Of a stretch of DNA of 64,000 nt, positions 8,919 to 49,267 are shown piece by piece. Position 1 is the first letter of the stretch. Every line of letters starts with the position of its first letter. Location: IMG/VR virus record IMGVR_UViG_3300045988_176028; one strand, written 5' to 3'. The notes beneath the pieces are model-generated. The model had not been told where the DNA came from and ran no database searches. It saw nothing but the letters and a program-made list of their open reading frames with translations. The DNA is from a virus. A program made the translations under genes and the position numbers.

Positions 8919-9119
8919 CTATCGATTCATGCTCAATCGAATCTTGACCGCGACGACCAGCAACGCGACTATGAGGGCGCAGACCGACACGACGCCGAAC
9001 GTGCGGCCAAACGTGAACAGCCAAGTGCCGAACGAGTAGATGCCGAACGCGACTGCGGTGGTCACTCCACAGAACGCGATGGTGACGAGCGTCATGAGCA
9101 GAACATCCTTGATATGCAT
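8919..9119 (-). CDS. small two-TM membrane protein, 66 aa
   Basis: Trimmed to the ATG at 9119 (MHIKDVLLMTLVTIAF...), RBS AAAGGAG. Two hydrophobic helices. Confidence 0.5.
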   Translation of the reverse strand: MHIKDVLLMTLVTIAFCGVTTAVAFGIYSFGTWLFTFGRTFGVVSVCALIVALLVVAVKIRLSMNR

Positions 9120-9159
9120 TTTTCTCCTTTTGGTGACGGGTTTTGCGAACCCTTGTTTG

Positions 9160-9178
9160 TGTGAACAATTCCAGTATA
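9160..9178 (-). promoter_or_regulatory. conserved promoter/leader box copy
   Basis: Coding-strand text is tatactggaattgttcaca. Confidence 0.6.
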
Positions 9179-9252
9179 CATCATGGTGGGATACGACACG
9201 CCAAACAAAAAGCGCCCCACCCATCCAAGGGAGAGGCGCTAAAACCCGACGG

Positions 9253-9630
9253 TCAGAACTCATACTCGCAATCGGAATCGAGATACCATTTGTCGCCGTA
9301 ACCCCAAAGAACACGACGGATGGTCGCAGGGTCGTTCAGCTCCACGAACTTGGACGCCAATTCATCCACCGGCATGGCGGAAAAAGCCTTATCCACGGAA
9401 CCGTAGAATCTATCCCATTCCGCCTGTTCGGCGTCGGAATCGACAAGCTCATGGAACCGTTCGGCAAGCTTTTTGTCCGGTAGGGTGACTTCCGCAAAAT
9501 TCGTATCCTCTATGTCCAGCCAAGCGTTGAAACACTTGTCGGCCAAGGCTTCGACTGGGATGGTGAGGATGCTGGAATACGTGCCTTTCCACGCGTTCCT
9601 TTTGAAGAAGCTAACGTCTCTTGCCTTCAT
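9253..9630 (-). CDS. acidic hypothetical protein, 125 aa
   Basis: Trimmed to the ATG at 9630 (MKARDVSFFKRN), RBS AGGAGG. Asp/Glu-rich. Confidence 0.55.
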   Translation of the reverse strand: MKARDVSFFKRNAWKGTYSSILTIPVEALADKCFNAWLDIEDTNFAEVTLPDKKLAERFHELVDSDAEQAEWDRFYGSVDKAFSAMPVDELASKFVELNDPATIRRVLWGYGDKWYLDSDCEYEF

Positions 9631-9643
9631 TTTCCCGTTCCTC

Positions 9644-10137
9644 CTATTCTTCCTCGCCGTCCGTCTGACGGAGCGGGACGATACGGTTCCACTGTTCCTC
9701 ATACTCGTCCTCCGCGTCCTTGGAACCATTGTCCAGCAGTTTGTTCAACGTGGCTCGTCCTACGTCGCTGAGACGGCTGATGCTGCGGAGGATGCTCGCC
9801 ACGTCGTCGGCTTCGTATAATTTGTTGCGATTGTCCAAAAGTTCCTGATACTTCGAGTCGGTGAGGTTCCAGAGATAGTCTTCCAGTAGTTTCCAGTCTT
9901 CTTTTTCGGCAGAGGGTACTGGAATCGGCTTGGTGAGCCGCCAATCTTCGAGAATGTCCGCCCAAGGGTCGGTCTTGACATTGTATTCGCCAAGGTCTTC
10001 CTCGTGGGTGAGTTTTTCGATTCGCTGTTCTTCGCCATCCTCGTCCAAGTAGTCTATTGTGAGATATTCACTATCCACTGACAAGGTGGAGAGTTCGCGT
10101 AGTTTGGTGATTTTGAGGTTGGTGATTGTCTTAATCA
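9644..10137 (-). CDS. highly acidic hypothetical protein, 164 aa
   Basis: Trimmed to the ATG at 10137 (MIKTITNLK), RBS AAGGAGG. Very Asp/Glu-rich and ends in DGEEE. Confidence 0.55.
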
Positions 10138-10250: not shown

Positions 10251-11075
10251 TCAGGCATTCAGCAAAGCATGGGACGAAACACCCATTTCAGACAAGCCCA
10301 AACCCACATTGTTCGCGTCGCTCACACCACAAACGAACCCAGCCTTGCTACCACGGGCGGTGGCGACGCGAGCTGCTTCCAGTTCGAGATTGTCGAAATA
10401 GTCGTTGACACGCTGGCTCTTGCGGGCCACAAGCTCACGACCGGAGGGAATGTCCAAGCTCTGCTTGCGAAGCTCCTCGAAACGTTCGCTTAAACGTTCG
10501 TTGAATCCACCGCGATAACCATAGTAGAACTTGGCGCGTGGATAATCACGACGCATGTACTGTTTGCATTCCGTCAGCGTCGGATAGGATTCATGTCCGT
10601 AATGCGTTTCGACGTATTCCTTGTTGTCCTCATAGTACGCTTTGGCGTGCTGGTCAATCATGTCCGCGTAGCTAGTGCGGGCGTGGACTGAGCAGTACAG
10701 GTCGATGCTTTGGAAGAGAATGACTGCGGCGTTCACATCGTCCTCCTCGCCTACGAACATGACGGCACGTTCCTCAATCCTTCCGCCACACCGGCTTTCG
10801 TGAAGGTAGGCGCGGCATTCGTTAGCTTGGGCGATGATGGTCGCAAGGTAGCCTTGCTGATGGTAGATGGTGGTTTTGCTTACGTTCACGCCACGTTCGA
10901 TGATTGGCTTGTTCGTGCGGGTGCGGTCGCGTTTCCAGTCTTCGATACGATATTCGTTGATGAGTTTCTGTGCCCGCTCGAACGCCATTTGCGCCTCATT
11001 GTCACTGGAAGCTTCGTTTTCGGCTATTGCCATAAGGTTGTTGATACGTTCGATGATGGTGTTGATGTCGCTCAT
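10251..11075 (-). CDS. DUF2786-like domain protein, 274 aa
   Basis: N-terminus IERINNLMAIAENEASSDNEAQMAFERAQKLINEY matches the DUF2786 pattern common in plasmid and phage genes (from memory). Confidence 0.6.
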   Translation of the reverse strand: MSDINTIIERINNLMAIAENEASSDNEAQMAFERAQKLINEYRIEDWKRDRTRTNKPIIERGVNVSKTTIYHQQGYLATIIAQANECRAYLHESRCGGRIEERAVMFVGEEDDVNAAVILFQSIDLYCSVHARTSYADMIDQHAKAYYEDNKEYVETHYGHESYPTLTECKQYMRRDYPRAKFYYGYRGGFNERLSERFEELRKQSLDIPSGRELVARKSQRVNDYFDNLELEAARVATARGSKAGFVCGVSDANNVGLGLSEMGVSSHALLNA

Positions 11076-11107
11076 TTTTTACTCCTTGTGTTTCAGACTT
11101 CTTTTTG

Positions 11108-11126
11108 TGTAAACAATTCCAGTATA
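11108..11126 (-). promoter_or_regulatory. conserved promoter/leader box copy
   Basis: Coding-strand text is tatactggaattgtttaca. Confidence 0.55.
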
Positions 11127-11230
11127 CCTGAGTATGAACACAACACGCCCAAAAACACGCAAACAACCCTCAGAAAAACAAAAACGCTCCCCAGTCCAAA
11201 AGGCAAGAAGAACGCTATCCGACAAAAACC

Positions 11231-11572
11231 TCAGGCACCAAGCTTGGAATGGTGCAGAAGCCTACGGATATGGATATTGTGAACGAACCGACTATGACCA
11301 TTAATCCTCTTGGCGAACTCCCCATCGGAATACTCACCATCCGGAATACCATTCAGAACGTTCTCCGGAATGTCTGGAAGGGACTCCGGAAGACGCTCAA
11401 ACATGTAATAGTTGACACCCTCACATCCTTCGACATGCTCGAAAAGCATGAAGTAGGCACCCTCGGGGTCGTCCATGAAACGGCTCAGAACATAGGACTT
11501 GGACTTGTTAGCGTTGGCGAAGATGTTGTAATCCTCGGCACCATATTGGGTGAAATATGTGGACTTGTTCAT
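11231..11572 (-). CDS. hypothetical protein, 113 aa (paralog of 5558..5866)
   Basis: Complete ATG ORF, RBS AAGGAG. Shares the YGAEDYNIF and LFEHVEG blocks with 5558..5866. Confidence 0.6.
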   Translation of the reverse strand: MNKSTYFTQYGAEDYNIFANANKSKSYVLSRFMDDPEGAYFMLFEHVEGCEGVNYYMFERLPESLPDIPENVLNGIPDGEYSDGEFAKRINGHSRFVHNIHIRRLLHHSKLGA

Positions 11573-11604
11573 TTTTTCTCCTTATGTCCTTCAACTTACT
11601 TTTG

Positions 11605-11623
11605 TGTGAACGATTCCAGTATA
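11605..11623 (-). promoter_or_regulatory. conserved promoter/leader box copy
   Basis: Coding-strand text is tatactggaatcgttcaca. Confidence 0.6.
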
Positions 11624-11738
11624 CCTCAAGAGAGGATAAAACACAAAAAGAGAGACGGGAACCAAAACGAAAACTGTTCCTCATTAACTTTTAAAGCATT
11701 ATACTTATTATAATTATTATAAAATCAAGGAGACAGCA

Positions 11739-13004: not shown

Positions 13005-14012
13005 CTATCCCTTGTGCGTTTTCTCATACCATTCCACGAATCCCAGCATGGCTTGCTGGAATGATGGTTTGAATTCGCCGTTTACGGGAATGTTTCTGTT
13101 GAGTGGCGTGGTCTTATAGTTTTCCGGTAAGGGTGTGGCGCACCATTCGGGTGGTATCCGGTCGGTGAATGGTTCCTCGCAATCGTCGCTGAACATGAGT
13201 CCTACGGGCTTGCCGTTGAGGAGGATTGTTGCGTGGGGGCTGATTTGTCCTTTCGCCAACCGGTATTCGCCTTTTGTCGTGTGTATTGGATAGTGGAAGG
13301 TTTCAGGTAGTCCTCCCCGCCGGTATTCGTCGCGTAATAGTCGAATCGGATTATAGTAGCGTTCCAATGCGGGGTATGCCCATTCGCATCCGCTCCAACA
13401 GTCGCGTACCCTGTCCATTCCGTCCCAGTTTTCTTTCGGATTGGGTTGGATGCTGAGTTTGCGGTATCGGTCGGTTTGGCACCAGCGGGTGGGATTGTTC
13501 AGGGCATAGTTTGGCGTGGTTTGTTCGGCTAACCGTATGAGAGTGCTGAGGGTGCATGAAGCATAATGTTGCTTGTCGTATCGTGCGACAAGCCGATACG
13601 GGTCGGCATCATCCTTGTTAAACACAGGCTTCAACACGCGTAAATGTTCCTCCGTTACGGGAATATCAAGGTCGGCTGGTAAACCCAACACTTCCATCCA
13701 ACCTCCAAGCCTGTTCGTATCCCACTTGTAATCCTTGCAGTATTGCGCTTGCAACAGCCAAACCATCCAACGGCGCACATTCCGCATCAGTACGGGATGG
13801 GACGCGAATTCGAGAGGACGCCCCAGCATGTCATGATTCACATTATCCGGCGTGGTAATACTGGTTCGATTACCGTACTCGTCCACTGCCGTCACGACGA
13901 TATTGTGTCCGGCGTCCACAGCCTTGAACATGTCGCTGATGTTGTCTTCCACGAACGTGGGCAGAATGAGACGCGACTGGACTTGACCATTAATCGGCAC
14001 GGAGAGCATCAT
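13005..14012 (-). CDS. hypothetical protein, 335 aa
   Basis: Complete ATG ORF. Its start overlaps the stop of 14009..14620 by 4 nt. Trp/Cys/Pro-rich, no family recognised. Confidence 0.6.
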   Translation of the reverse strand: MMLSVPINGQVQSRLILPTFVEDNISDMFKAVDAGHNIVVTAVDEYGNRTSITTPDNVNHDMLGRPLEFASHPVLMRNVRRWMVWLLQAQYCKDYKWDTNRLGGWMEVLGLPADLDIPVTEEHLRVLKPVFNKDDADPYRLVARYDKQHYASCTLSTLIRLAEQTTPNYALNNPTRWCQTDRYRKLSIQPNPKENWDGMDRVRDCWSGCEWAYPALERYYNPIRLLRDEYRRGGLPETFHYPIHTTKGEYRLAKGQISPHATILLNGKPVGLMFSDDCEEPFTDRIPPEWCATPLPENYKTTPLNRNIPVNGEFKPSFQQAMLGFVEWYEKTHKG

Positions 14013-14620
14013 TCACCATCCTCACTATTAGAGGCGAGTCGGGTTCGGAGTTCCCTCAACCGGCCTAACCGTTCCTCCATAGCCTGAATACGAACGTCAA
14101 CCGCAGTCAACGTGTCACCATCCGGCTCAGACAACTCATACTTGCCGGACGACAGTCGTTCCAGAAAACTGGTTGGAACATCCCATACCAATAATCGGAG
14201 TTTGTCGGGACTGAGATTCAACCCCGTGTACAAGCCGGTTTTAGGCCACATGCCATCCACGAGAGCCACATTCGGCATCATGCGCGGTGGACGGTCGGGC
14301 TGATATTTTTCGACTAGGATTCGACCAGCGAACCAGATAATGTCGCTATCCTGCTTGGAGTACGCGTACAAGTAGTCGTAGGGGTCGATGGTGACTGTGA
14401 CACGCTTTTCAGCGTCCACGCCCTTATGCCACCAGAAGTATTTGTCTAAAGCTTCGAACACCAGCCTTTCCACACGCATATCGAACGTCCAAGTCTTCAA
14501 CTTGTCATCAAACGTTCCACCCAACGCGCGGGAGCGACGGGCGAACAACGGATTATATGGAGCCTTAACCTTCAAACGGCCATCACTGCGAGTGACCGTA
14601 ATATCATCAAAACCTGCCAT
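14009..14620 (-). CDS. hypothetical protein, 203 aa
   Basis: Complete ATG ORF, RBS GAAAGGAA. C-terminal coiled-coil-like IQAMEERLGRLRELRTRL. Confidence 0.6.
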   Translation of the reverse strand: MAGFDDITVTRSDGRLKVKAPYNPLFARRSRALGGTFDDKLKTWTFDMRVERLVFEALDKYFWWHKGVDAEKRVTVTIDPYDYLYAYSKQDSDIIWFAGRILVEKYQPDRPPRMMPNVALVDGMWPKTGLYTGLNLSPDKLRLLVWDVPTSFLERLSSGKYELSEPDGDTLTAVDVRIQAMEERLGRLRELRTRLASNSEDGE

Positions 14621-14889: not shown

Positions 14890-16119
14890 TCACGGGTGAA
14901 AAGCCAGCTTCCGCATTTCACAATGCCTCCGATACCACGCTTTCTCCCGAGCGCACAGTCCACGACGGTGAGTTAGACCCGACAGTGTGCTCTCATGGCT
15001 CGTCCAAGAATCCTGAACTGTCCGCAATCCCACATGCACGCCATCATATGAGCGGATAAGGTTACGCGCATGCCGTCGGCTTGCACGCAACGCCTTATGG
15101 TGCATGCGGATAAGAATACTGCCGTCATCCTGTACGCTGTATACGCGTTTCAGGAATGTGAGTTGACCGGTGCGACAGTCCACTATGCGGGTCTTGCGCT
15201 TGTTCAACCGCAATCCCAATTGATTGACATGCCGCTCGTAACCGGCCAGCACACGTTCGGCCTGTTCACGATTCTTGCAGAAACAGTAGGCATCATCCAT
15301 ATACCGTCCGTAGAATCCTTGCGACATGCACCAGTGGTCAACCTTGTTCAAATACCAGATAGCCATGGTTTGGCTTGTCTGATTGCCTAAACCCAAGTGA
15401 GGTTCGTCCAATACGAAGATTCTCAATACGGTTAGAATCCGTTCCACATCCTGCTTCTCCCGTCCGGTGCGGGCGATGCTCCGGTACAGGGTGGAAATCA
15501 TATCGAACGCTCGTTGGGAGCTGATACTTCCGAAATAGTTGGAACAGTCGAAGATGACAGCATACGGATGCTCCCATTTGCCCAAAGCCCGCTTATAGTG
15601 TAGTTCGAACCGTTTTCGGGCGAACGATGTTCCACGTTTCGGTAGGCTTGCCGCATTATCGTATATCAGTTGGCTTTCCACGATGGGGACGAGACTGTTG
15701 TCGCATAAGGCGCGTTGCACCACCCGGTCTCGGAAGGATACCGCGCTGATGTGGCGGAGTTTGCCTCGTTCGGAAATGTCGAATCGGATTGGCGCTCTCT
15801 TCTTGTATGTGCCGTCCTCTAATTCTTGGGCGAGTTTCCAACAGTTGACGGCACGCCTATTGTCGAAGTTCAACACTGTGTTTTCCCATGTGACGCCGCG
15901 TTTGCATTTTCTTGCGGCTTGGTAGAGCGCGTCGAATCCGAATGTTTGTTGGAAGTCGATGTAACGGTGGAGCTTCCTGTACTTATCATCCGAGCGTTGT
16001 TGCAGTCTGCGTTGGCGTCTTCTACGTCTTTGACTCGCATTCACGATTTTAATGCTTCCTTCACTAGGGAAAGAGAAAAGAATGGTTGAGGGCAGGTCGT
16101 CGGCAACAACCCAAGACAT
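14890..16119 (-). CDS. DGR-type reverse transcriptase
   Basis: RT motifs SFRDRVVQRAL and the YxDD box GRYMDDAY. Also the DGR-typical [ILV]GxxxSQ motif (LGLGNQTSQ). Lies about 195 nt downstream of the TR. The N-terminal ~40 aa (poly-Arg) may be over-extension. Confidence 0.88.
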   Translation of the reverse strand: MSWVVADDLPSTILFSFPSEGSIKIVNASQRRRRRQRRLQQRSDDKYRKLHRYIDFQQTFGFDALYQAARKCKRGVTWENTVLNFDNRRAVNCWKLAQELEDGTYKKRAPIRFDISERGKLRHISAVSFRDRVVQRALCDNSLVPIVESQLIYDNAASLPKRGTSFARKRFELHYKRALGKWEHPYAVIFDCSNYFGSISSQRAFDMISTLYRSIARTGREKQDVERILTVLRIFVLDEPHLGLGNQTSQTMAIWYLNKVDHWCMSQGFYGRYMDDAYCFCKNREQAERVLAGYERHVNQLGLRLNKRKTRIVDCRTGQLTFLKRVYSVQDDGSILIRMHHKALRASRRHARNLIRSYDGVHVGLRTVQDSWTSHESTLSGLTHRRGLCAREKAWYRRHCEMRKLAFHP

Positions 16120-16313
16120 GCAATGATGTTGGACGCCCAGCTTAAGGGGCGAGTATCCGTCGTTCCCGACAGTCTTAATATCTCCCTCAACCTATTTCAC
16201 ACGCAACCCATTTTTCGAGGGGCCGCGCATTCGACCATATCCCCTTCCCCTTCGGGAGGCTTTCACCCATTGGGCTACTGGCCTATCTGATGTTAGTTTT
16301 TGGTAAGAGGAAT
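16120..16313 (-). other. non-coding spacer between TR and RT (possible DGR RNA 3' region)
   Basis: No credible ORF. In characterised DGRs the segment between TR and the RT gene is part of the template/primer RNA. This is inferred from position only. Confidence 0.35.
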
Positions 16314-16467
16314 CGGGGACAACGGAGTAGCGATTGTTGGCATTGTTGTTGTAGCTGGGGTCGCCGTTCGAGTTCACTTGGAGGAAATTGTTGTTGTTGT
16401 TCGGGTTGGGCGAACGCTCCCACCAATTGTTGTTGTTAGCACCAAGAGGAGTGGAACCGGAAACGGT
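16314..16467 (-). repeat. DGR template repeat (TR)
   Basis: 154 nt colinear with 17112..17265 at a constant offset of 798 nt, no indels. Non-coding location. Translates in the VR frame as Asn-rich (ANNNNWWERSPNPNNNNNFLQVNSNGDPSYNNNANNRYSVVP). Confidence 0.9.
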
Positions 16468-16509
16468 GTCACCATAGTTTGGATATGGCCGATTTTGTTC
16501 AATTATATT

Positions 16510-17025
16510 TTAGGCTTGCGCCCGAGTATCCATTATAGTGTTCGTTTTCGACTCGGCGTTTTTAGCTTTCTTCAACTGGTCTCGCTCATACTTGACGGCT
16601 CCGGTGAACACGCCCATCGCCTTGTAGAGGGTTCCCGCATAGTTCACGAATTTCTTCTCCTTGACGACGGGATTGTATCTGGGGTCGCCTTCCGGATATT
16701 TCCTGTAGGCTTCCAAGTCTTTTTCCCGTGGAGGAAACTCCATCCAATCGTCCACAAGACCGGAGAGTGAGTTCAGCATGCCTTGGGCCTTGCACAACAG
16801 TTGCAGTTTCATCTCATGCTCTTCTACAGTGCTTGCATAAATGATGTCGGCACTGTAGGCGGAGGAGTACATTTCGTAGGCGATATGCATGACATGCACG
16901 GTTTCAATGCAGTTACGGCTTTTAGGCCATTTGCGGAACAGATTTCTGGTAGCCAAGAGCACGATTCTGGCCTGATTCGCATATTCGCTTTTGGCTTTTG
17001 TACGTTTGCTTGCGGGAACCGTCAT
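16510..17025 (-). CDS. accessory variability determinant (Avd)-like protein, by position
   Basis: 171-aa basic, apparently helical protein sitting exactly between the target gene and the TR, the canonical Avd slot. No sequence motif verified. Confidence 0.5.
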   Translation of the reverse strand: MTVPASKRTKAKSEYANQARIVLLATRNLFRKWPKSRNCIETVHVMHIAYEMYSSAYSADIIYASTVEEHEMKLQLLCKAQGMLNSLSGLVDDWMEFPPREKDLEAYRKYPEGDPRYNPVVKEKKFVNYAGTLYKAMGVFTGAVKYERDQLKKAKNAESKTNTIMDTRAQA

Positions 17026-17097
17026 AGGACTCCTTTTGTGTGAGATTTGAGTTTGGAGGGGTGGTGGGGATGAACCCCACCACCCAAGGATTGGGGA

Positions 17098-18030
17098 TTA
17101 GAAGGAGAAAGCGGGGACAACGGAGTAGCGATAGTCGGCACTGCTGATGCAGCTGGGGTCGCCGCCCGAGTCCACTCGGAGGAAATCGCTGTTGTAGTCC
17201 GGGTTGGGCGAACGCTCCCACCAAAAGTTGTAGTTAGCACCAAGAGGAGTGGAACCGGAAACGGTCTTGTAGATGCCGGAGAGAATGCTATTACCCGACC
17301 GGTTATTTGTCACCTTACCGTGGAAATACTCGTATTGGCTTCCCTCCTGATTCAACGCTTGGAAACCACCAGAGGTCTTCCAACCATCGTATAAGGTTGG
17401 TACGAGTTCACGGTAGGAGACGAGCCATACTTTGTCTGCCGTGGCTGACGCGCTTGAACCGACTGTGCTTCCGTAGGCCATGTTGTTGGTTTGTTTCAGC
17501 ACGGTTGTGACGTTGTTTTGGAAGTCGGTTGGGAATTGGTTCCAGATTTCACCATTGTTCATCTGATTGCGGAGAAGACTGTCACGCCAGCCGCCATTAT
17601 TGGTGTGACTATTGTTCATGGCATACGCTTTCGGTAACGCGTTCCAAGCCATGAACGTCAATCCTGCTTTTCGTCCACTTCCGTCGGTTTTGTCGTCGTG
17701 GAGGATGCCGATGAGTCGGAATGGGAGGTTCGAGCCGTCTGATAGGGTGAGCGTGCCTTTGACCCCGTCGGTCAGGTTCTTTTCCATTGCGGCATAGTAT
17801 GTGCTTCCTTTGCCTTTCTCGCTTAAATCGTCGGCAATCTGTTTCAATCCCGCCGCGTTATAGCCCGCGTAGCAAACCTTGTCCACGCCAGTATTGCATT
17901 TGGCTGGTTCGGCGGCTATTGCACTACCGGTGAGGAAGCCGCCGCAGACCGCGCTCATGATGGCGAGGGTGGCGAGGAGCCGCCGAACCATGTGACGGCT
18001 CCCGTGTGATTGTGTGGCGTGTTCGCCCAT
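17098..18030 (-). CDS. DGR target: secreted protein with variable C-terminal ligand-binding (C-type-lectin-fold-like) domain
   Basis: Trimmed to the ATG at 18030 (RBS AAGGAA, 12 nt after the adhesin stop). Signal-peptide-like MVRRLLATLAIMSAVCGGFLTGSAIAAEP. The VR covers roughly the last 55 codons (...NFWWERSPNPDYNSDFLRVDSGGDPSCISSADYRYSVVPAFSF). Confidence 0.8.
   Translation of the reverse strand: MGEHATQSHGSRHMVRRLLATLAIMSAVCGGFLTGSAIAAEPAKCNTGVDKVCYAGYNAAGLKQIADDLSEKGKGSTYYAAMEKNLTDGVKGTLTLSDGSNLPFRLIGILHDDKTDGSGRKAGLTFMAWNALPKAYAMNNSHTNNGGWRDSLLRNQMNNGEIWNQFPTDFQNNVTTVLKQTNNMAYGSTVGSSASATADKVWLVSYRELVPTLYDGWKTSGGFQALNQEGSQYEYFHGKVTNNRSGNSILSGIYKTVSGSTPLGANYNFWWERSPNPDYNSDFLRVDSGGDPSCISSADYRYSVVPAFSF
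17112..17265 (-). repeat. DGR variable repeat (VR)
   Basis: Differs from the TR at 17 positions by hand alignment. All are T in the TR on the plus strand, i.e. A on the coding strand. The VR ends 12 nt before the stop codon. Confidence 0.9.
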
Positions 18031-18041
18031 TCTTGTTCCTT

Positions 18042-21000
18042 TCACTGTTCTTCCTTCTTTCGTAGGAGGATGATTGCCGCGACGAGTCCGCTGATGCTGA
18101 CGAGCATGAGGAGCGGCAACAGCAATCCCATGCCCGTGTGCGGCATGGTCGCCAACCATGTTTCAGGCAGGACACCCGCATCCACATGCTCCTTGGTTGG
18201 AGCATCTTGGGTGAGGGTGATGGTCAGCTTGTTGGCTTCATCCGTGTAAGCATCCGAATCAGTGGAGCTTCCATCCGTCGCAGGAGTCTTGTCTCCCACA
18301 TCCGGCGTGGTGAAGTCCCGGTGGTTCACTTTGGTGAATTGGATACGGTATTTGTTGCCGTTCGCGTCCAGACGTTCGAAAATGTACTTGCCATCCTTGT
18401 CGGTCTTGGTGGTTGCCAACTGTTTGCCGTTCTCGTCAGTCAGAATGACCGTCTGACCGGCGAAATGCGTGTTCTCACCTTCATCTTGAATGCCGTTCTT
18501 GTTGGTATCCTCCCAATACAGGCCGCTGATGGAACCGAGTTTCTTCGCGGTGGTGGTTGGTGTGATGATGGTGCCGACTTGGTCGCAGGAGTCCTCATCG
18601 GACGTGCTGAACCAGTGTTGGCGTCCTTCCTCCGTATAGTCGGTGTCGGTGCGGCATGTCGGATTGCCGGTCACGTCATTCGTGTTCGTATCCAGTTTGG
18701 ATGCGTTCGGAGGGTCCGGCTTGGTTTTGCCGCTTGCATGTGGCGTGCCTGAGTATGGCGTGTGTTCGGAGGTGAACCATGCTTGGTTGAGAATGGTCTT
18801 CGTATTCTTCTTGACCCACTCGTCTTTCTCAGTTGGAGACCACTTGGTAGTATCCGCAGTTTCACGGTCAACGGTGCCAGTGAAATGGTAGATGACATAG
18901 CCGCCCGACTCAATCGCATACGGCAGATTGTACGTGCGGGTCGTCAACCCCTTCTCCGTGGACTCGCTCAACGGTTCGACCGGTACGGCGGTCGGGTCGG
19001 ACGATACGACCATTCCCTTCAAACCGGTGGAACGTGCGCCACCCGTCTTGCCGTCACCATACGGGTCGAAGCCCGCAATCATGACCTGCTTGCCGACAAT
19101 GAGCACGTCACGGTCGCCGCCCGCAACGTCGGATGCGGTAATGCCCGTATCGATTGGCGTGGAAACAATATCCGCGTTGCCGCTCGTACTGCCGTTGGTC
19201 CAATACCTGCCTGTACCGGTCTTACCGTTCGCTAATTGGCCGTCACCATTCCAGCCAGCCGCCCACAAGTGTTGGTTCTTGTCGATGGCGTAGAAAGTGT
19301 TGTATCCGCCACCGATACGGGTGATGTACCTCAGATTAGACACATTGGACTGGCCGATACCGCTATCACCTCCGCCGACGAGCACTATCACTGTACCCGC
19401 GTCAGTCAACCCGTAGGCGTTGCCGAATGAGGCGACAACTTGCGTGAAACCAATAGAGAAAAACTCGTCGCCGTCCACCACACAACCGCCGTAGGACGTC
19501 AACGCGACCCACCTGTACGTGCTGGCGCTGACCTGCGTGAACGTTTTACCCGACTGGATTTGCGTCCACGTTGAATACGAGGTGGAACTGACTTTTCCGA
19601 CCACCCACAAGGTGCCGTCACTTGCTATCGCCACAGTGAACTGGTTGCCGCACGCCACGTCAACAAACGTCTTATCTTCTGCGACTAGAGTCCACTGGTC
19701 ACGATTATCCGTATCACCCGTACCCAATTGGCCTTTACCGTTCCAACCAGTCGTGTACAAGTGGCCGTCCGTGCTGATGGCGGCGGAATGCTTGCCACCG
19801 GCGGCGACTTTCAGCCAACTACCGTTGACGATGGTCGGCTTGTTCACGTTCGTTGGGGTAGCGGTATTCGTCGTGTCAGGCTTGAAACCTAATTGACCAT
19901 ACTGGTTGTTACCCCACGCATACAACAAGCCCTCGTTCGTCAACACAAACTTATGGTCGCCACTCGTCGCAACCTGCTTCGCACCACCAGACTCGATAGA
20001 AACCGTACCGGCGGTAGCGGAAACATCATGCACGTCGGCGCTCATACGGTCAGAAACGACACTGGAAGTATCAAAACGACTAGTGCCAGAATTCTGTACT
20101 TTGACATCCCAGTTGATGACGCATTTCGTATCGGTGCAACTGGTGCCGGTGACGGTTTTGTCCACGGTGGCTTTCGGGTCTGGTTTCGCATACCCGTAGT
20201 CCACGTTCTTCTGGTCTGCGCCGATGCCTAGGTGGATGTCGTCGGACGTGTCTTTCGCGTTGGACTTGATTTTGTTCGACCAGCTTCGCGTGTTCGTCAC
20301 GTTTTCGAGCTTGCCATAGTAGGTTTTGACCTGCGTCTGCACGCCATCACCCGTACTGGTGCCAGTGTTGCGTTTCACCGAAGTACGGTAGGTGCCGGAG
20401 TGGAGCAGGTTGAACTCGTAGTAGCCGTCCTTGTCGGTCTTCACCGTTTTGACGGCCTGCCAGCCGCCGCTTGAATCCTGCTTGCCGAGGGTGACTTCCA
20501 CTCCTTCGATACGTTCTTCACTGTCACCGATGAGCGTGTTCTCATCCTTATCCCACCAGACGGTGCCGCTGATGCTACCGGCCACTACCTTCGCCACGTC
20601 AGGCCACGGCTGGTTGCCCGCCGGTTTGTCGGAAGCGTCGGAATAATAGTTACGGCCAAGCCACAGCGTGTACTTGTCGTCTTTCACATTGTCGGATGGG
20701 GTGAGCGTGATGGCGCCGTTCACCGCCGAATAGGACAGTTTATCGTCGGACGCGACGACTGTGCTGGTCAGTCGGATGGCGATGATGTTCTTCTTCTCGA
20801 TGGAGGACAATTCATCCCATGTCTTCCACTCGTAGTCAGCCGGATTATCCGACTTCTTTCCGGTGGTGGTTGAATAGTAGACGGTCGTACTGGTCGAATT
20901 GTCCATATTGACCGTGACGGGCTGGGTCAGTTCGTAGGAGCCATGATAGTTGCTGTATCCACGCTCATATTCGACCAGCTTGTCCTGCACGTACTTCTCA

Positions 21001-23420
21001 TCACCATTCGCAGGAAGCAGTAGCATGCTATCCATGGTGCCGGTATGTCCGCCGCCCTTGCCGTACACGTTGAACTCCCAAGTAAGCGGGTCACTGATTT
21101 CAGCCTTCGTGGTCTTCACACGCATGATGCCACTGTTGGTTTCCGCATTGGAGACAGGGAATGGGACGCTGGGCGTATTGCTTTTGATGGTTTGGGCTTG
21201 CAATGCGCCGTTCTCGTCAACGTCCACGCTCATATTCGCACTGGCGGTCACAGTCCCGGTGGCGAGATTGGATACGATGCCACTGAAATGCAGGTCAGGC
21301 AAAGTGGCCGACCCCATACGGTCTACTTCCGGCGTGACTTTGCCGGAACGTGGCGTGAACACGAGATTATTCCCGTCCACTTTCATCTGCCAGAACGAAT
21401 CATCACAGGTCGGATTGTACAAGCCTTTCGGTTTCGGCACCGTGATGGTCGGCGTCATGCTCGTATTGGACAGGAGAATGGTGCGCAATTGTTCCGTGAC
21501 CGTATAATCCACTCGCATGCCGGGAGTCAAATCGACTGCGCTTCCGGACGGGTGATTGGAACTGTTGTTCGCATACACTTGATTGCCTTCACCATCGTAG
21601 GCTTTTAGACTGATGTCGATACTGGTGGTCGGGTCTACCGGCTTGGCAATCCACACCCAATTGGTGACGCTCGCCTTATCGTCTTCGGTAAGCCATGCGG
21701 TCAGCGTATCCAAAGCTTCCACATTGCCTTTGGACACGTCGGCTATGGCGAGCGTGTTGAACGTGACCTGAACGTTCGGCGCACCCTTTCCCAAAGTCAA
21801 AGTGTCGGGGTTGAACGTCACCCGAATCTTCTTGACGTTCGGAGCGTCTGTGTCGGATGGTTCCCCGTCATGCCAATTGTCTTTGCTATCATCCCATTGA
21901 ACTTTGTAGTCGGAAACCGGAGCGCCGTTCTGGGTGACTTCCAAGCTTCCATCCCACCGCATGCGCGTATTATCCCACTCGTCCTGCATGGTCGGCGTAG
22001 TGTTTTTAAGCTTGTCCGCCGTAACGTTCGCCGCATACATTTCCAAAATGGTTTTGACTTGCGTTCCACGGGACACGGTGTCGCCGGAACCGTCGGAATA
22101 GTAATGGTAGATGTCGGCTTTGCCTTCGGCGGCGTCGAACGTCAGATTCTCCTTGTCGAACATGGTCTTGGACGCAGTGTTAGGACGTTGCAGTCCTTTG
22201 CCGAACAGTGGAATCTTGCCAGCTGGAGTCGGCTTGAGCCGTTGGATGATGGCTCGTGACCAGTCATTATTCGCGTACGGGTAGCCGACGCGGGCACCCG
22301 TATCCTTGTTGTAGGTGCTCTTGTCCCGTCCAATGTTCCAGCCGGGTTCTCCACCTTTGCCCATGTTCAACAGTGCGTCGCCGTTATCGTCTTTGACGCT
22401 GAACACGGTTTCGTCGGGAACAAGGTGGACATCGTAATATTTGACGTCTCCTTCTTTCATGTTTTTGAGCGCGTCGGTTCCGGCGGGAATCCTGTAGCTG
22501 ATTGTCGCCGCCGCACCGTTCTTGCCACTGGATACGGTCAGATACTGTTCTTTATCACTGTTACGGGTAATCCGCTGACCGCCTACAGTCCACACGGTGT
22601 TCTGCGGGAAGTCGGAAATATCCACTTTGGTAGTCCAATCGATGCTGGTGGACGCGCCCTTCGTGGACGAATAACCCGGATAGGTCAACGCGTCGGCACG
22701 AATAGTGAAATCGCCGGTCGCGTCGGTGTTCTGACTCCAATAAGTACGATGCTCATACGAGTATTGGCCTTTCACCGGATTGCCGCCATTGTCAATGACC
22801 AAGTCAGCCGCCGGAGCGGATACTACAGTCAGCTCATCCGTACGATACGTGGTTGACGTTCCACCTTCGCGGGCGACGACGATTTTCGGAATCTGACCCG
22901 GCTTGACCAAGCCTCCCGTGTCTTTTGCTTTCAGATAGAAGGTTTGGGTCATGGTTTCCACGCCACCGGCTGGAACCGTGTAGGAGCAGGAGCCGTCACT
23001 GTTTTTCTTCGCGGTGACGAGTTGTCCCGGCTGGCAGAAGCCACCACCGTCAGCAGTCTGCAAATACGGCGCGTCGTCCAAGTCGAACTTCACGTTGATG
23101 GTACGCTTGCCCGCCGCGTTGAAGTTCAACGTCAATGAATATTCGACCGTATCACCGGATGCGACCACGCCATCGGTAGGGGAATCATCGCCCGTGGCGA
23201 ACCCGTTCTTCGAATTCACGAACGTTTGCGAACTCGTGCCATGCCCCGTACCGTCGGCTTTCTTAACGATTTTCGCAGTAGCATACGCAGGTTTCAACTC
23301 GTCCGCATGCGCTTTTGGAGAGGCTACCGGATTGGTCATGCATGTCAGGCCGGATGCCAGTGTGGCGATTGCGGCCAATAATGCTACCGGATGTGCCACA
23401 TGCTTTTTGAGAATACCCAT
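18042..23420 (-). CDS. giant cell-wall-anchored adhesin (1792 aa) with RCC1-like repeats and SdrD-B/Cna-B-like domains
   Basis: N-terminal signal peptide. RCC1-like repeats (WGNNQYGQLG, GWNGKGQLGTGD, GWNGDGQLANG). Two SdrD-B-like modules (ISGTVWWDKDEN...DKDGYYEF; ISGLYWEDTNKNGIQD...DKDGKYIF). C-terminal MPHTG, a hydrophobic helix and RKKEEQ. Confidence 0.85.
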   Translation of the reverse strand: MGILKKHVAHPVALLAAIATLASGLTCMTNPVASPKAHADELKPAYATAKIVKKADGTGHGTSSQTFVNSKNGFATGDDSPTDGVVASGDTVEYSLTLNFNAAGKRTINVKFDLDDAPYLQTADGGGFCQPGQLVTAKKNSDGSCSYTVPAGGVETMTQTFYLKAKDTGGLVKPGQIPKIVVAREGGTSTTYRTDELTVVSAPAADLVIDNGGNPVKGQYSYEHRTYWSQNTDATGDFTIRADALTYPGYSSTKGASTSIDWTTKVDISDFPQNTVWTVGGQRITRNSDKEQYLTVSSGKNGAAATISYRIPAGTDALKNMKEGDVKYYDVHLVPDETVFSVKDDNGDALLNMGKGGEPGWNIGRDKSTYNKDTGARVGYPYANNDWSRAIIQRLKPTPAGKIPLFGKGLQRPNTASKTMFDKENLTFDAAEGKADIYHYYSDGSGDTVSRGTQVKTILEMYAANVTADKLKNTTPTMQDEWDNTRMRWDGSLEVTQNGAPVSDYKVQWDDSKDNWHDGEPSDTDAPNVKKIRVTFNPDTLTLGKGAPNVQVTFNTLAIADVSKGNVEALDTLTAWLTEDDKASVTNWVWIAKPVDPTTSIDISLKAYDGEGNQVYANNSSNHPSGSAVDLTPGMRVDYTVTEQLRTILLSNTSMTPTITVPKPKGLYNPTCDDSFWQMKVDGNNLVFTPRSGKVTPEVDRMGSATLPDLHFSGIVSNLATGTVTASANMSVDVDENGALQAQTIKSNTPSVPFPVSNAETNSGIMRVKTTKAEISDPLTWEFNVYGKGGGHTGTMDSMLLLPANGDEKYVQDKLVEYERGYSNYHGSYELTQPVTVNMDNSTSTTVYYSTTTGKKSDNPADYEWKTWDELSSIEKKNIIAIRLTSTVVASDDKLSYSAVNGAITLTPSDNVKDDKYTLWLGRNYYSDASDKPAGNQPWPDVAKVVAGSISGTVWWDKDENTLIGDSEERIEGVEVTLGKQDSSGGWQAVKTVKTDKDGYYEFNLLHSGTYRTSVKRNTGTSTGDGVQTQVKTYYGKLENVTNTRSWSNKIKSNAKDTSDDIHLGIGADQKNVDYGYAKPDPKATVDKTVTGTSCTDTKCVINWDVKVQNSGTSRFDTSSVVSDRMSADVHDVSATAGTVSIESGGAKQVATSGDHKFVLTNEGLLYAWGNNQYGQLGFKPDTTNTATPTNVNKPTIVNGSWLKVAAGGKHSAAISTDGHLYTTGWNGKGQLGTGDTDNRDQWTLVAEDKTFVDVACGNQFTVAIASDGTLWVVGKVSSTSYSTWTQIQSGKTFTQVSASTYRWVALTSYGGCVVDGDEFFSIGFTQVVASFGNAYGLTDAGTVIVLVGGGDSGIGQSNVSNLRYITRIGGGYNTFYAIDKNQHLWAAGWNGDGQLANGKTGTGRYWTNGSTSGNADIVSTPIDTGITASDVAGGDRDVLIVGKQVMIAGFDPYGDGKTGGARSTGLKGMVVSSDPTAVPVEPLSESTEKGLTTRTYNLPYAIESGGYVIYHFTGTVDRETADTTKWSPTEKDEWVKKNTKTILNQAWFTSEHTPYSGTPHASGKTKPDPPNASKLDTNTNDVTGNPTCRTDTDYTEEGRQHWFSTSDEDSCDQVGTIITPTTTAKKLGSISGLYWEDTNKNGIQDEGENTHFAGQTVILTDENGKQLATTKTDKDGKYIFERLDANGNKYRIQFTKVNHRDFTTPDVGDKTPATDGSSTDSDAYTDEANKLTITLTQDAPTKEHVDAGVLPETWLATMPHTGMGLLLPLLMLVSISGLVAAIILLRKKEEQ

Positions 23421-24325
23421 TAGTGTTCCTTCTTTGCGTGGTTTTTTCTACGGATGATGAGAATGGTGATGATGATTACCGCAAGCCAGAAGCCGCCGAC
23501 GTACAGCATGAGCCATTGGTTCGTGTGGTCTTTCGGCGCGTTTTCGGGTTTGGGCGCGGGGTGTGGCATGCTGGCGCGCGTGCCGGTCACCAAGAGTCGC
23601 TTGTTGTTGATGCCGTATGGCGTGCAGGTCAATAGTGTGGAGAGGTCTTTTCCGGCGACGATTTTCAGTTTAGAAAAGTCGGATGGGTCTACCACACTAA
23701 TATCCGTGACCTTGTAAGCGAGCATATGTCCGGCGGTTATCAAATAGAAGACGTCTCCCTTTTTGGCTTCACTGCCGAAGCCTCGCAGCTTGTCGAACAT
23801 GAGCTGGTCGGCCAAACCCGTGTGAGCGGATATGACAGTATGCGTGTTCTTGCCACCGACGGGGAGACTGGAACCGTATAAGTGTCCAGCTCCAGCGGCC
23901 AACACATTTTGCGACGTGCCATGCCGGATGGGCAGGTTGATGCCCAAGCGTGGATATTTGATGGTAGCCATGACCCCATCCTTGGGGGTGGATAGTTGCT
24001 TCCGATACGTGTTGTCCGTTTCGGACTTGTTGACGCCCGTCCAAGGGTCTTCCGCCTCACCAAGAATGGGCTGGCCTTCCTCGTATAGGCGTTGATTGTA
24101 GGCTTGCGCGTCCGCATACTCTTGGGCGATTCGTTTCACGTCAGTGTTTTCCACGGCTTGCGCGTGGGAGTCGGTCAACCGGTTGGATTGGCTGCTGTTC
24201 GAAATCATGAGAATGAATGGGATGGTTCCGGACAGGGCGGATAGGATTAGGCAGAGAAGTCCCGCTATGGCTCGATTTCCCAAGCCTTTCGGTTTCGCCG
24301 TATGTTTTCCCAAAACCCCTCCCAT
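23420..24325 (-). CDS. class C (pilus-assembly) sortase
   Basis: Catalytic motifs HTVISAHTG and TLLTCTPYG...R. N-terminal and C-terminal TM helices, as is typical for class C sortases. Confidence 0.88.
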   Translation of the reverse strand: MGGVLGKHTAKPKGLGNRAIAGLLCLILSALSGTIPFILMISNSSQSNRLTDSHAQAVENTDVKRIAQEYADAQAYNQRLYEEGQPILGEAEDPWTGVNKSETDNTYRKQLSTPKDGVMATIKYPRLGINLPIRHGTSQNVLAAGAGHLYGSSLPVGGKNTHTVISAHTGLADQLMFDKLRGFGSEAKKGDVFYLITAGHMLAYKVTDISVVDPSDFSKLKIVAGKDLSTLLTCTPYGINNKRLLVTGTRASMPHPAPKPENAPKDHTNQWLMLYVGGFWLAVIIITILIIRRKNHAKKEH

Positions 24326-24339
24326 GCGGTTATAAAGAA

Positions 24340-24380
24340 TCTAAAAAGTGGCGTGTCGATATTTGGGTTCCCGACACGCC
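24340..24380 (-). terminator. intra-operon terminator/attenuator candidate between pilin and sortase
   Basis: Stem ggcgtgtcg (24350..24358) pairs with cgacacgcc (24372..24380). Followed on the minus strand by ACTTTTTAG. Confidence 0.5.
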
Positions 24381-24459
24381 AAGCGGAACATTTCATGCTT
24401 TTCCAACCGTCAAACGGTCAGAAAAGTTTTCTCATACGGCAGTATTCCAATCTCCAATC

Positions 24460-26190
24460 TCACGCCTTGCGACGAAGCAGCAGGGCGGAAGCGCCAGCCA
24501 ACAGGACGGTCATCACGCCGAAGATGGACAGCCAGACCGCACCGGTCTTCGGCATGTCAGCGATGTTGCGGGCGTTGATGACGGTCACTCCATCGTCACT
24601 GGTCTTGGAGGCCAGATGGTTGGCATCATCCTTGAACTTGGTGAGGGACGAAGTGCTGGTGTTATGGTCTTTGGACTGGGCCACGCCAACGGTCAGAGTG
24701 AACTCCGGCAGAATGCTGCCGCCGAACGGACTCTTGGTTTCAGTCACCGTGTAGGCACCGTACAAGCCCTTCAAGGTGATGACGCCATTGTTCTTATCGG
24801 TGGTGGTGATGTCGGCGCTTGCGGTAGCGGCCTCAGTCGAGTCGGCAACACGATACTCGTTATCACCCACCTTGACGAACTTGACGATATTGCTCTTGGC
24901 ATCCTTGATGTTGAACACGGCACCCGCGAGCGGAGCATTGTTCGTATCGGTCTTGGTCAGAGTGAACTTGCCGACGTACACGTAGTTGGTGTCGCCCGGA
25001 GTCTTCTCATGGTCGGTGACGGTGTTCGGATTATGGGAGTATTCGACCTCGCTCGTGTTGGTGTCAACACCGTCCACGTGGGCGTTCTTGTTCACGGTCA
25101 TGTCATAAGTGACAAGCACTTCCGCATCGACCGGGAACGTGGTCTTGGCGGCGATGATGTCGGAAGAACCATCAGCGGTCGGGGCGAACAGGATATGGAA
25201 CTTGCCCGCCTCGGTCGTCACCTTGTAATCCTTGCCAGCAGTCAAAGCCTTACCACCGACAGTGACATTCACACTATCCGGGTTGAAAGTCAGACCATCC
25301 GAATACGTATCGTTGAGCGCATAATAATAATGGTCGTAGCCAGTCCAAACAGGCACCGCGCCGCCCATCGTGAAAGAGACCTTCTTGCCGATGGAGGTCT
25401 TGGCTACCGCATAATATTTCTTCCCTGCTTGGCGAGCCCCCTCATCCTCATGGTCCTCACCGATTTTCTCATCCACATCACCATTCTCAACAGAGGTGAT
25501 AGCCTTCCTGACTGCGGCGTCATGCACCTTATAGTCCACGGTGCCCAGCGTGTAGGTCTTGTCGCCGTTCTTCAACGTGGTCTTGCCGTCGATGCCGGTG
25601 CCGTTGAACATGACGATGGACGCCTGACCGGCCGTGGTGGTGTCCACGACCGCATACACGCCCGGACGGACTGATGCGGTCATATGCTTGGCGTCGGCGC
25701 CCTTGGCGAACGCGGTGCCCTTGTCGCCGGTGACGGCGGCCTCGTTCTTCAACTGGTCGATGAAGTCACGAAGCTTGCCAGCCCACGGGCTGTTCTCGGA
25801 ATCAAGGAGATTCTGCACGACCCACACCATCGGATTGGACGCATTATAGTCGTATCCGGCAGTCTGGTCTTTCTTGGACTGGGTGTCAATATGGGCTTTA
25901 GTCAGTGCGTCAGCAATGGCAGAAGCCTTGCCCGCGTCAATCAGGTCAAAGCCGGTAATATTAGTACCATCAGTCTGCGCATACGAATAGTAGGCGAGCG
26001 GCACAGCCTTCAACGTGCGATTGCTAATATCACCATTAGCAGCGACGGTCAACGTCTGACGAGCAGCCTCACCAAGCTTGGATGCGTCAACACGAGTATC
26101 AGCCGCCATGGCGGAGCCAACTCCAGCCAAACCCATGGCACCGGCCACAAGCGTGGCGACCGTTGCCTTCAACAGGTTTTTGGTTTTCAC
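24460..26190 (-). CDS. sortase-dependent major pilin (576 aa)
   Basis: Signal peptide MKTKNLLKATVATLVAGAMGLAGVGSAMA. E-box-like YTVTETKSPFGG. C-terminal MPKTG, a hydrophobic helix and RRKA. Confidence 0.8.
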   Translation of the reverse strand: MKTKNLLKATVATLVAGAMGLAGVGSAMAADTRVDASKLGEAARQTLTVAANGDISNRTLKAVPLAYYSYAQTDGTNITGFDLIDAGKASAIADALTKAHIDTQSKKDQTAGYDYNASNPMVWVVQNLLDSENSPWAGKLRDFIDQLKNEAAVTGDKGTAFAKGADAKHMTASVRPGVYAVVDTTTAGQASIVMFNGTGIDGKTTLKNGDKTYTLGTVDYKVHDAAVRKAITSVENGDVDEKIGEDHEDEGARQAGKKYYAVAKTSIGKKVSFTMGGAVPVWTGYDHYYYALNDTYSDGLTFNPDSVNVTVGGKALTAGKDYKVTTEAGKFHILFAPTADGSSDIIAAKTTFPVDAEVLVTYDMTVNKNAHVDGVDTNTSEVEYSHNPNTVTDHEKTPGDTNYVYVGKFTLTKTDTNNAPLAGAVFNIKDAKSNIVKFVKVGDNEYRVADSTEAATASADITTTDKNNGVITLKGLYGAYTVTETKSPFGGSILPEFTLTVGVAQSKDHNTSTSSLTKFKDDANHLASKTSDDGVTVINARNIADMPKTGAVWLSIFGVMTVLLAGASALLLRRKA

Positions 26191-49135: not shown

Positions 49136-49154
49136 TTTACTGGAATGTTTCTCC
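49136..49154 (+). promoter_or_regulatory. degenerate copy of the promoter/leader box
   Basis: Text is tttactggaatgtttctcc. It keeps the ACTGGAATGTT core. Upstream of parA. Confidence 0.35.
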
Positions 49155-49267
49155 GAACGGTTTTCCAGTTCGGCGTGCCGACTTTTCGCCGTTGTTATCA
49201 TCGAAACAAAAAACATACCCCCACCATGATTCCGTCCACACCGGAAGCAGAAAAAGGAAACCAGAAC

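Follow-up and report, generated by a model that had tools for sequence, protein, structure and literature searches.

A diversity-generating retroelement with a DUF6273 target gene beside a sortase-dependent pilus operon on a putative Bifidobacterium plasmid

The IMG/VR virus record IMGVR_UViG_3300045988_176028, of which we analysed a stretch of 64,000 nucleotides (hereafter the window), very probably carries a complete diversity-generating retroelement (DGR) that has been active in nature and resides on a large (~220 kb) Bifidobacterium plasmid. A preliminary description, made from the letters of the window without database searches, had proposed a complete DGR at this place, and the proposal is borne out by several features: the differences between the template repeat (TR) and the variable repeat (VR) fall on template adenines only, the reverse transcriptase (RT) belongs to the DGR clade, the VR occupies the 3' end of the target gene and is followed by a hairpin, an accessory gene is present, and related loci supply population data. 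To our knowledge, prokaryotes have no natural system other than DGRs for targeted protein hypervariation, and among known habitats DGRs are densest in the human gut. Bifidobacterium is a health-relevant, infant-associated genus. The coordinates of all features are collected in Table 1.

The two repeats align without gaps at a constant offset of 798 nucleotides (TR 16314-16467, VR 17112-17265; 0 indels in an ungapped comparison), and a repeat finder reports the same pair as 168-nt copies of 87% identity. Over 154 nt they differ at 17 positions, each of which is a T on the plus strand of the 16.3-kb copy, that is, an A on the minus (coding) strand of the TR; 11 of the changes are A>G and six are A>T. 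As the TR contains 43 A in 154 nt, the chance that 17 of 17 random sites would fall on A is ~2e-11 (hypergeometric) or 4e-10 (binomial). A weaker similarity runs on for 14 nt to 16300/17098 with five mismatches, three of which are at non-A bases, and this tail therefore lies outside the mutagenised stretch. Read in the frame of the VR, the TR gives ...ANNNNWWERSPNPNNNNNFLQVNSNGDPSYNNNANNRYSVVP..., while the VR itself is translated as ...ANYNFWWERSPNPDYNSDFLRVDSGGDPSCISSADYRYSVVP.... No gene is called across the TR in an identical public contig, and no further VR-like copy of the TR occurs within the 64-kb window. On the minus strand the order is target, accessory gene, TR, RT, with the TR between the accessory gene and the RT. 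On all these points computation and the preliminary description agree: the latter had claimed colinear copies without indels at this offset, 17 mismatches of a single base type, an intergenic invariant copy and the present gene order, and had quoted an Asn-codon reading of the TR and a translation of the VR that match the computed translations exactly. The self-comparison with a tally of mismatches by TR base, which it had suggested as a check, put every mismatch at A, with neither a non-A mismatch nor an indel in the 154 nt.

The target belongs to the DUF6273 family. In the literature this domain is regarded as C-type-lectin-like and is known from DGR targets, where the VR forms its C-terminal part (PMC10743442, PMC11792537). 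The protein has 310 aa when started at the ATG at 18030, and gene callers also use the ATG at 17991 (297 aa). Its N-terminus consists of a basic stretch and a hydrophobic stretch followed by AIA|AEP, read from the sequence itself rather than by a predictor, which we interpret as a putative signal peptide of a secreted protein. This is in line with the earlier claim that the variable copy encodes the C-terminal tail of a secreted protein, as the VR forms the last ~51 codons of the gene. The protein carries no LPXTG-type signal, no pilin domain and no tail-fibre N-terminal domain. We found 191 homologues, mostly of 310 aa and carrying Bifidobacterium names. The 39 closest are near-invariant except at codons that are AAC or AAT in the TR, and the peaks of protein-level entropy coincide exactly with these AAY codons; a second lineage (59-65% identical) displays a matching pattern of variability. 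From the 17 AAY codons of the TR, a theoretical repertoire of > 1e20 can be calculated.

The RT contains the two motifs that the preliminary description had pointed out, YMDD and the DGR-type LGxxxSQ, here LGNQTSQ, both in the ORF at 14890-16119 (-). Its best PDB sequence match is 8ub7 (E 3e-13), a 328-aa chain named 'Reverse transcriptase' that we take to be the bRT of Bordetella phage BPP-1; in the alignment LGNQTSQ falls on IGSLTSQ and YMDD on YMDD, and no group II intron or retron RT is found among the PDB matches at E<=0.01. The best matches among annotated phage RTs are likewise DGR RTs, namely those of Roseburia phage Shimadzu (34% identity), Faecalibacterium phages, nd4/nd12 and Bordetella phages. 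In tblastn searches with the RT, DGR RTs overall reach 94-167 bits and group II RTs 57-67 bits; within plasmids, RTs in or beside annotated DGR cassettes (recognised by annotated Avd and/or FGE-family target genes) reach 94-103 bits, compared to 57-67 bits for group II RTs. A small neighbour-joining (NJ) tree of five DGR-type and four group II RTs (318 columns, 200 bootstraps) places the window RT as sister to the Shimadzu RT (100%) within a DGR clade (100%), with the group II RTs apart (94%), so that the phylogenetic check suggested beforehand assigns it to the DGR clade and not to group II. The motif [ILV]GxxxSQ, which belongs to RT motif 4, is present in all five DGR-type RTs and in none of the four group II RTs. 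Some far more distant relatives of the RT (33-38% identical) are annotated as 'RNA-directed DNA polymerase' or 'hypothetical protein', and no relative was found in GTDB representative genomes.

One could propose instead that the RT is that of a group II intron or a retron and that the 154-nt repeat has nothing to do with it, having arisen when the DUF6273 gene was partially duplicated at its 3' end. The NCBIfam model group_II_RT_mat (TIGR04416) indeed matches the RT with an E of 9.5e-25, and there are weak matches to retron and Drt models, yet the scores lie far under the curated cut-offs (87 against 300 bits for group II, 25.9 against 235 bits for the retron model NF038233). Moreover, no Rfam family, group II intron and retron RNAs included, is detected in 12-20 kb even at E<=1, and an ordinary duplication would not leave all 17 differences on a single base in just one of the copies. 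Together with the separation of the tblastn scores, the NJ split at 94-100% bootstrap and the presence of the [ILV]GxxxSQ motif, these observations leave us giving next to no credence to an intron or retron.

Directional, adenine-specific rewriting of the VR from the TR occurs in this DGR family, as a comparison of related loci (numbered L001 onwards) shows. Eighteen human-gut metagenome loci carry the same or nearly the same RT. Eight loci hold both repeats, and 149 of their 154 TR/VR mismatches coincide with adenines of the TR; in L039, whose RT is 67% identical, the count is 18 of 18, and in the distant L004 it is 16 of 17. The TR is identical in the window/L005, L007 and L009 and near-identical in other loci. 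The VRs of the window, L007 and L009 nevertheless show 19-25 pairwise differences, all at TR adenines except for one C>T in L009. Between L009 and the window the differences are concentrated in the repeat, with 3/765 upstream of the VR, 19/154 within it and 3/2300 downstream. In addition, the non-A changes in the TRs of L012 and L015 reappear in their own VRs, which argues for transfer from TR to VR. Because gut loci with the same TR carry VRs that differ at TR adenines, we consider the element to have been active in nature.

A more cautious interpretation would accept the DGR as real but regard the window copy as a fossil in which homing has ceased and the differences between VR and TR are historical. 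Decay is indeed seen in the family, with a loss of ~4 kb in L001/L002 and frameshifted remnants in L026, and the window VR is identical to that of L005, a locus that possibly comes from the same source. On the other side, all ORFs are intact, and in several samples an identical TR is combined with different VRs, flanks that are 99.6-99.9% identical enclosing VRs that are 12% different; homing must therefore be more recent than the divergence of these plasmids. We regard the fossil interpretation as unlikely.

Beyond the repeats, the VR and TR tails are set apart by five fixed differences. The VR tail, CTTTCTCCTTCTAA, is invariant in all loci, and the residues AFSF that it encodes are unchanged in all homologues. 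The repeat itself closes at its 3' end with an A-free 14-nt segment, CTCCGTTGTCCCCG. A GC-rich inverted repeat is present after the VR and absent after the TR. Folded as DNA, it reaches -15.4 kcal/mol (z -4.4), with 0 of 200 shuffles equally good. L012/L014/L015, L016 and L039 have compensated changes in the stem and an unaltered loop. In BPP-1, target recognition requires a hairpin/cruciform with an 8-bp stem and a GRNA loop (PMC3240598), and the inverted repeat of the window agrees with it in position and behaviour; by analogy we consider it a candidate hairpin/cruciform target-recognition element. It was also considered as an intrinsic terminator of the target gene, which we rejected, as a T-run is missing after it and a conserved hairpin at this place is a known DGR feature.

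Sequence islands in the spacer between TR and RT are kept across lineages down to an RT identity of 67% (L039) and in the distant locus L004. The spacer strand GGATATGGTCGA is complementary to a strand upstream of the TR, TCGGCCATATCC; in contiguous-duplex tests of three lineages, no more than 2 of 500 shuffles per lineage reached a duplex of this kind (11-12 bp). In L039 the counterpart is CGGCCATGTCC / GGACATGGTCG, with a compensatory A-U to G-C change relative to the window, and in L004 it is GGTGCGCATCC / GGGTGCGCACC, where the sequence is unrelated and the pairing is kept. The ribonucleoprotein of BPP-1 contains an avd:Sp 'cPRT Stop' duplex and a TR:Sp template:primer duplex (bioRxiv 10.1101/2023.10.23.563531). 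The significance and covariation of the TCGGCCATATCC/GGATATGGTCGA pairing support its reading as a putative analogue of the former. As for the latter, the TR-specific 3' tail ATTCCTCTTACCAA includes TTCCTCTT, which starts one base beyond the last TR/VR-identical position and is able to pair with the purine-rich spacer element GAAGGGGAAGGGG, whose 3' end the GGATATGGTCGA strand overlaps by two nucleotides. For the TR-specific tail and the spacer, RNAalifold predicts a helix of 18 pairs with two compensatory changes, and we tentatively suggest that TTCCTCTT might be the template strand of a template:primer duplex. The fold of the whole TR-spacer RNA is no better than that of shuffles (z -0.3); RNAduplex with free interior loops gave no discrimination and was replaced by the contiguous-duplex tests.

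The accessory gene had been designated avd in the preliminary description, a name that is supported at the level of the predicted fold and by a weak profile match, but not by membership in an Avd sequence family. Neither the protein nor any of 21 family members matches a model in Pfam (including bAvd PF22296 and PF05635) or NCBIfam at E<=1, and no match to PDB sequences is obtained with the single sequence or with a 21-member profile. The family is small: 5.8 billion clusters contain six close homologues, and in a set of 1.84 billion cluster representatives 30 relatives reach E<=0.001. An AF2 model built from the family alignment (pLDDT 88) features four long helices, the third and fourth of which are separated by an inserted short beta-hairpin (residues ~97-122); it replaces a single-sequence AF2 model (pLDDT 63), for which Foldseek had returned generic helical bundles. 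The best PDB folds found by Foldseek with the alignment-based model are 2gsc and 2rld (prob 1.0, TM 0.79-0.82 on target, E only 0.016), and 2GSC is a representative of PF05635 that is homologous to the Avd structure 4DWL (PMC10053308). In the profile comparison, hhalign aligned the family to four annotated Avds weakly (prob 50%, E 1.6e-4), placing the family's RKWPKSR on the PK..RF motif of Avd and skipping the insertion. The pI of Avds has been given as 9.5 +/- 0.7 (PMC5758913), a range that includes the value of 9.4 calculated here. Members of the family also sit between the DUF6273 VR and the TR in L004, L037 and L039. Because of the four-helix-bundle fold with its PF05635-type best matches, the weak hhalign match, the basic pI and the position, we conclude that the gene probably encodes a highly divergent Avd-like protein outside the curated Avd sequence families.

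Two further observations concern this gene. The author-annotated Avd of phage Shimadzu (orf23, L030 1625-2035) is also missed by the Pfam bAvd model, and standard models appear to under-detect Avd in this gut DGR lineage. Furthermore, a 22-nt stretch of the accessory gene (16673-16694) is identical at 19/22 positions to TR 16349-16370 / VR 17147-17168; it codes for EGDPRY, located in the insertion between helices 3 and 4, where the TR and VR read NGDPSY and GGDPSC. In L004, too, the accessory gene and the TR resemble each other to a comparable degree, over 30 nt (1419-1448 vs 1567-1596). By a rough estimate, such a resemblance is unlikely to have arisen through chance.

In the mechanism that we propose for the DGR, an RNA that extends from before the TR through the TR into the spacer would fold and thereby pair the spacer with the sequence shortly before the TR, in the Stop-like duplex that the comparison of lineages supports, and probably, though tentatively, also with the TR-specific 3' tail. 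The RT and the basic four-helix-bundle accessory protein would copy the TR into cDNA with misincorporation opposite adenines, and the cDNA would then replace the VR. Three elements would guide homing: the A-free 3' end of the repeat, the tail specific to the VR and the GC hairpin that follows. As a result, ~20 codons (17 of them AAY) would be randomised, corresponding to at least 1e20 proteins, and the residues concerned would lie at the C-terminal face of the secreted, C-type-lectin-like DUF6273 product. Cis-priming and the roles of the hairpin and of the accessory protein are inferred here by analogy with BPP-1 (bioRxiv 10.1101/2023.10.23.563531; PMC3240598). Most likely, the system serves to vary ligand-binding specificity in adhesion, since the target is the last gene of a pilin-sortase-adhesin operon; candidate ligands would be host or dietary glycans, or other cells.

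Several points weigh against this picture. The accessory protein fails all Avd sequence models. The A-free 3' segment is neither a pure GC run nor a pure (GC)14 element, and the 5-nt hairpin loop TTCAT falls outside the GRNA tetraloop consensus of phage DGRs. The contiguous duplex between TTCCTCTT and the spacer measures 5-8 bp and is not significant on its own. That the target adopts a C-type-lectin fold is a prediction from the Pfam match and the literature, and that it works with or alongside the pilus in adhesion is suggested by gene order only. Finally, the evidence for VR turnover in nature is indirect and of population level, from a comparison of loci.

Table 1. Features of the window (positions of the 64,000-nt stretch)
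Feature	Position	Strand	Description
Target, DUF6273 (C-type-lectin-like) protein	17098-18030	-	Pfam PF19789, E 5.7e-15
VR	17112-17265	-	last ~51 codons of target; 17/17 differences at TR adenines
VR-specific 3' tail CTTTCTCCTTCTAA	17098-17111	-	last four codons and stop; counterpart of the initiation of mutagenic homing (IMH) element
GC-rich inverted repeat	17059-17085	-	candidate recognition element; 11-bp stem, loop TTCAT; 12 nt past target stop codon
Accessory gene (putative, Avd-like)	16510-17025	-	171 aa, pI 9.4
Upstream-of-TR duplex strand TCGGCCATATCC	16481-16492	-	13 nt upstream of TR; 12-bp duplex with spacer
TR	16314-16467	-	non-coding; 43 adenines; 17 AAY codons in VR frame
TR-specific 3' tail ATTCCTCTTACCAA	16300-16313	-	includes TTCCTCTT at 16305-16312
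Spacer between TR and RT	16120-16299	-	contains purine-rich element and Stop-duplex strand
Purine-rich spacer element GAAGGGGAAGGGG	16241-16253	-	conserved island
Stop-duplex spacer strand GGATATGGTCGA	16231-16242	-	pairs with TCGGCCATATCC
RT	14890-16119	-	409 aa; Pfam RVT_1, PHROG 1423; LGNQTSQ at residue 244, YMDD
Sortase-dependent pilus operon	18042-26190	-	Pfam; upstream of target, not part of retroelement
RCC1/SdrD-B adhesin	18042-23420	-	Pfam; 1792 aa, C-terminal membrane anchor
Sortase	23420-24325	-	Pfam
Backbone pilin	24460-26190	-	Pfam
SPFH/flotillin	26370-27575
DnaB	27819-29159		52-53.5% aa identical to pMP7017-family plasmids
ParA-type ATPase	38028-39242
ParA-type ATPase	49145-49930
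ArdC-like antirestriction protein	3139-3993
GmrSD_C-like nuclease	53582-54607

With regard to the replicon, the same RT is found on contigs of 221-222 kb, including those behind L005 and L008, and an assembly of B. pseudocatenulatum contains an 83%-identical version on a 185-kb contig. The window has a GC content of 48-57% and contains no tRNAs. No conjugation markers were found in PHROG and Pfam scans of the flanking ORFs, and the cassette with 20 kb of flank has no nucleotide match among phages or plasmids (PLSDB). We take the host replicon to be a large Bifidobacterium plasmid and a distant relative of pMP7017. The assignment to Bifidobacterium is made because of the B. pseudocatenulatum contig, the names carried by the homologues and the DnaB match; the scan of GTDB with the RT gave no relative.

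One may also think of a DGR of a phage or prophage, in which diversification of a tail fibre would serve to switch host range as it does in BPP-1, Shimadzu and the Faecalibacterium phages. Shimadzu, whose RT is the closest annotated one at 34% identity, has a DUF6273 tail fibre as its target, and the window RT matches a PHROG RT family with 192 bits. However, there is no DNA match among 50,697 phage records, and no capsid, tail, terminase or lysis domain is detected in 33 larger window ORFs (Pfam) or 11 ORFs (PHROGs). The target has a signal peptide in our reading, lacks a tail-fibre N-terminal domain and is placed after a sortase pilus operon, in surroundings that resemble a plasmid (ParA-type ATPases, ArdC, and a DnaB with 53% identity to its pMP7017 counterpart), and the pilus and DUF6273 module is chromosomal in B. 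moukalabense, beside gpsA and ddl. A phage origin is accordingly very improbable in our view.

The DUF6273 target is the next gene downstream of the pilus operon; it starts 12-13 nt past the stop codon of the adhesin gene, and in several loci the adhesin and DUF6273 ORFs overlap, often by ~14 nt. The module of pilin, sortase, adhesin and DUF6273 protein recurs in L025, L026, L036 and L039, and the pilus operon is always followed by the DUF6273 gene, be it on the plasmid or on Bifidobacterium chromosomes and with the DGR attached, decayed or absent. In L039/L040, which have other flanks and an RT of 67% identity, the DGR is complete. L026 shares the flank type of L039 and holds frameshifted remnants of the accessory gene beside an intact pilus and DUF6273 module; the remnants, together with fragments of a second DUF6273 gene, lie at 9066-9403, 9667-9818 and 11295-11669. 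On the plasmid-like B. pseudocatenulatum contig of L001/L002 (GCA_020526265.1), the DGR was lost via a deletion of ~4 kb, located at 10965-11464 and corresponding to the window from 16868 to 12847. Of the accessory gene the 3' two-thirds are missing, and with them the TR, the RT, two ORFs downstream and the last part of an AAA_16 ATPase gene; the deletion leaves behind a frozen VR and the hairpin with one G-T mismatch; an IS605-type OrfB gene is located ~3 kb away. In the chromosomal loci L025 (B. moukalabense) and L036 (Bifidobacteriaceae bacterium MCC02031), both beside gpsA and ddl, no DGR was detected in the 8-kb flanks (by sequence for L025, by gene list for L036). A more distant homologue of the target adjoins a pilin gene on an element with a TrwC relaxase. 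These findings are consistent with the recurrent four-gene module being a functional unit, and if so, the module would predate the retroelement and would have repeatedly gained or lost it. More doubtful is whether the DUF6273 protein that the DGR diversifies works together with the sortase-dependent pilus, perhaps as a secreted lectin docking on the RCC1/SdrD tip adhesin, and we offer this as a tentative possibility. If it held true, the element would be the first Gram-positive DGR linked to a sortase pilus, spread by a bifidobacterial megaplasmid, and a gut commensal could in this way re-programme its adhesion specificity or the recognition of mating partners.

Compared to the prototype DGR of BPP-1 (mtd-avd-TR-brt), the element of the window shares the order target, accessory gene, TR, RT, the adenine-specific mutagenesis, a target of C-type-lectin type with a 3'-terminal VR and the RT motifs, as well as a GC-rich inverted repeat just past the TR/VR homology (PMC3240598) and a duplex that the spacer forms with the region before the TR and that adjoins the 3' end of the TR (bioRxiv 10.1101/2023.10.23.563531). 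The two differ in that the BPP-1 element is phage-borne with a tail-fibre trimer as target, whereas here a plasmid carries a secreted DUF6273 target. Unlike in BPP-1, the accessory protein has 171 aa and an insertion and does not match bAvd in sequence, the stem of the hairpin measures 11 bp and its loop 5 nt instead of 8 bp and a tetraloop, a pure (GC)14 element is lacking and the RT has an extra N-terminal extension of ~50 residues. The DGRs of gut Firmicutes phages with DUF6273 targets (Shimadzu; the Faecalibacterium phages Lelie, CP11, Roos and Pioen; nd4 and nd12) resemble the window in having the VR at the DUF6273 C-terminus, and Shimadzu additionally in having the nearest annotated RT and an Avd that escapes the bAvd model; their targets are tail fibres or tentaclins, in contrast to a stand-alone secreted protein at a pilus operon on an actinobacterial plasmid. 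A further comparison is with the DGRs on integrative and conjugative elements (ICEs) of Bacteroides that diversify type V pilus subunits (bioRxiv 10.1101/2024.11.15.621889), which likewise belong to a mobile element of a non-phage nature in a gut commensal and to a pilus or adhesion locus. There, however, the pilus is of type V, the pilin itself is diversified and the host is of another phylum, while the window combines a sortase-dependent pilus with a non-pilin target.

The pMP7017-family conjugative megaplasmids (B. breve, B. longum; 184-198 kb) provide the best plasmid matches of the window DnaB, but have no nucleotide similarity to the window. A tblastn search with the target found no DUF6273 homologue in Bifidobacterium plasmid records, no such record is among the RT matches listed or tallied, and the paper on pMP7017 is silent on reverse transcriptases and DGRs. 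Plasmid-borne DGRs make up 2% (PMC5758913), and actinobacterial DGRs have already been described (PMC5758913; bioRxiv 10.1101/2024.11.15.621889). DGRs, DUF6273 targets and actinobacterial and plasmid DGRs were thus all known beforehand, and the DGR concept is unchanged by our findings; in the literature we found no paper describing this element or a DGR on a bifidobacterial megaplasmid. What is worth noting here is the unrecognisable Avd, the linkage to a pilus operon and the natural series of gain and loss. The element offers a clean, apparently active, non-phage example of a DGR in Bifidobacterium, and the series of attached, decayed and absent DGRs on one pilus and lectin module can help to ask what diversification serves. 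A divergent Avd-like family missed by standard models also means that such cassettes could be mis-scored as Avd-less in surveys. Lastly, a putative Stop duplex beside the TR 3' end adds one more data point for a conservation of the BPP-1 RNA architecture in a distant lineage.

Some further ORFs of the window are without a Pfam match. Directly after the RT, two ORFs of 203 and 335 aa at 13005-14620 (-) have no Pfam match; this pair follows the RT in the window, L005, L006 and L037, not in L039, and is lost together with the RT in L001. Two larger ORFs on the plus strand, at 40888-43548 (886 aa) and 44584-48591 (1335 aa), contain no Pfam domain and show weak matches to PHROGs of unknown function.

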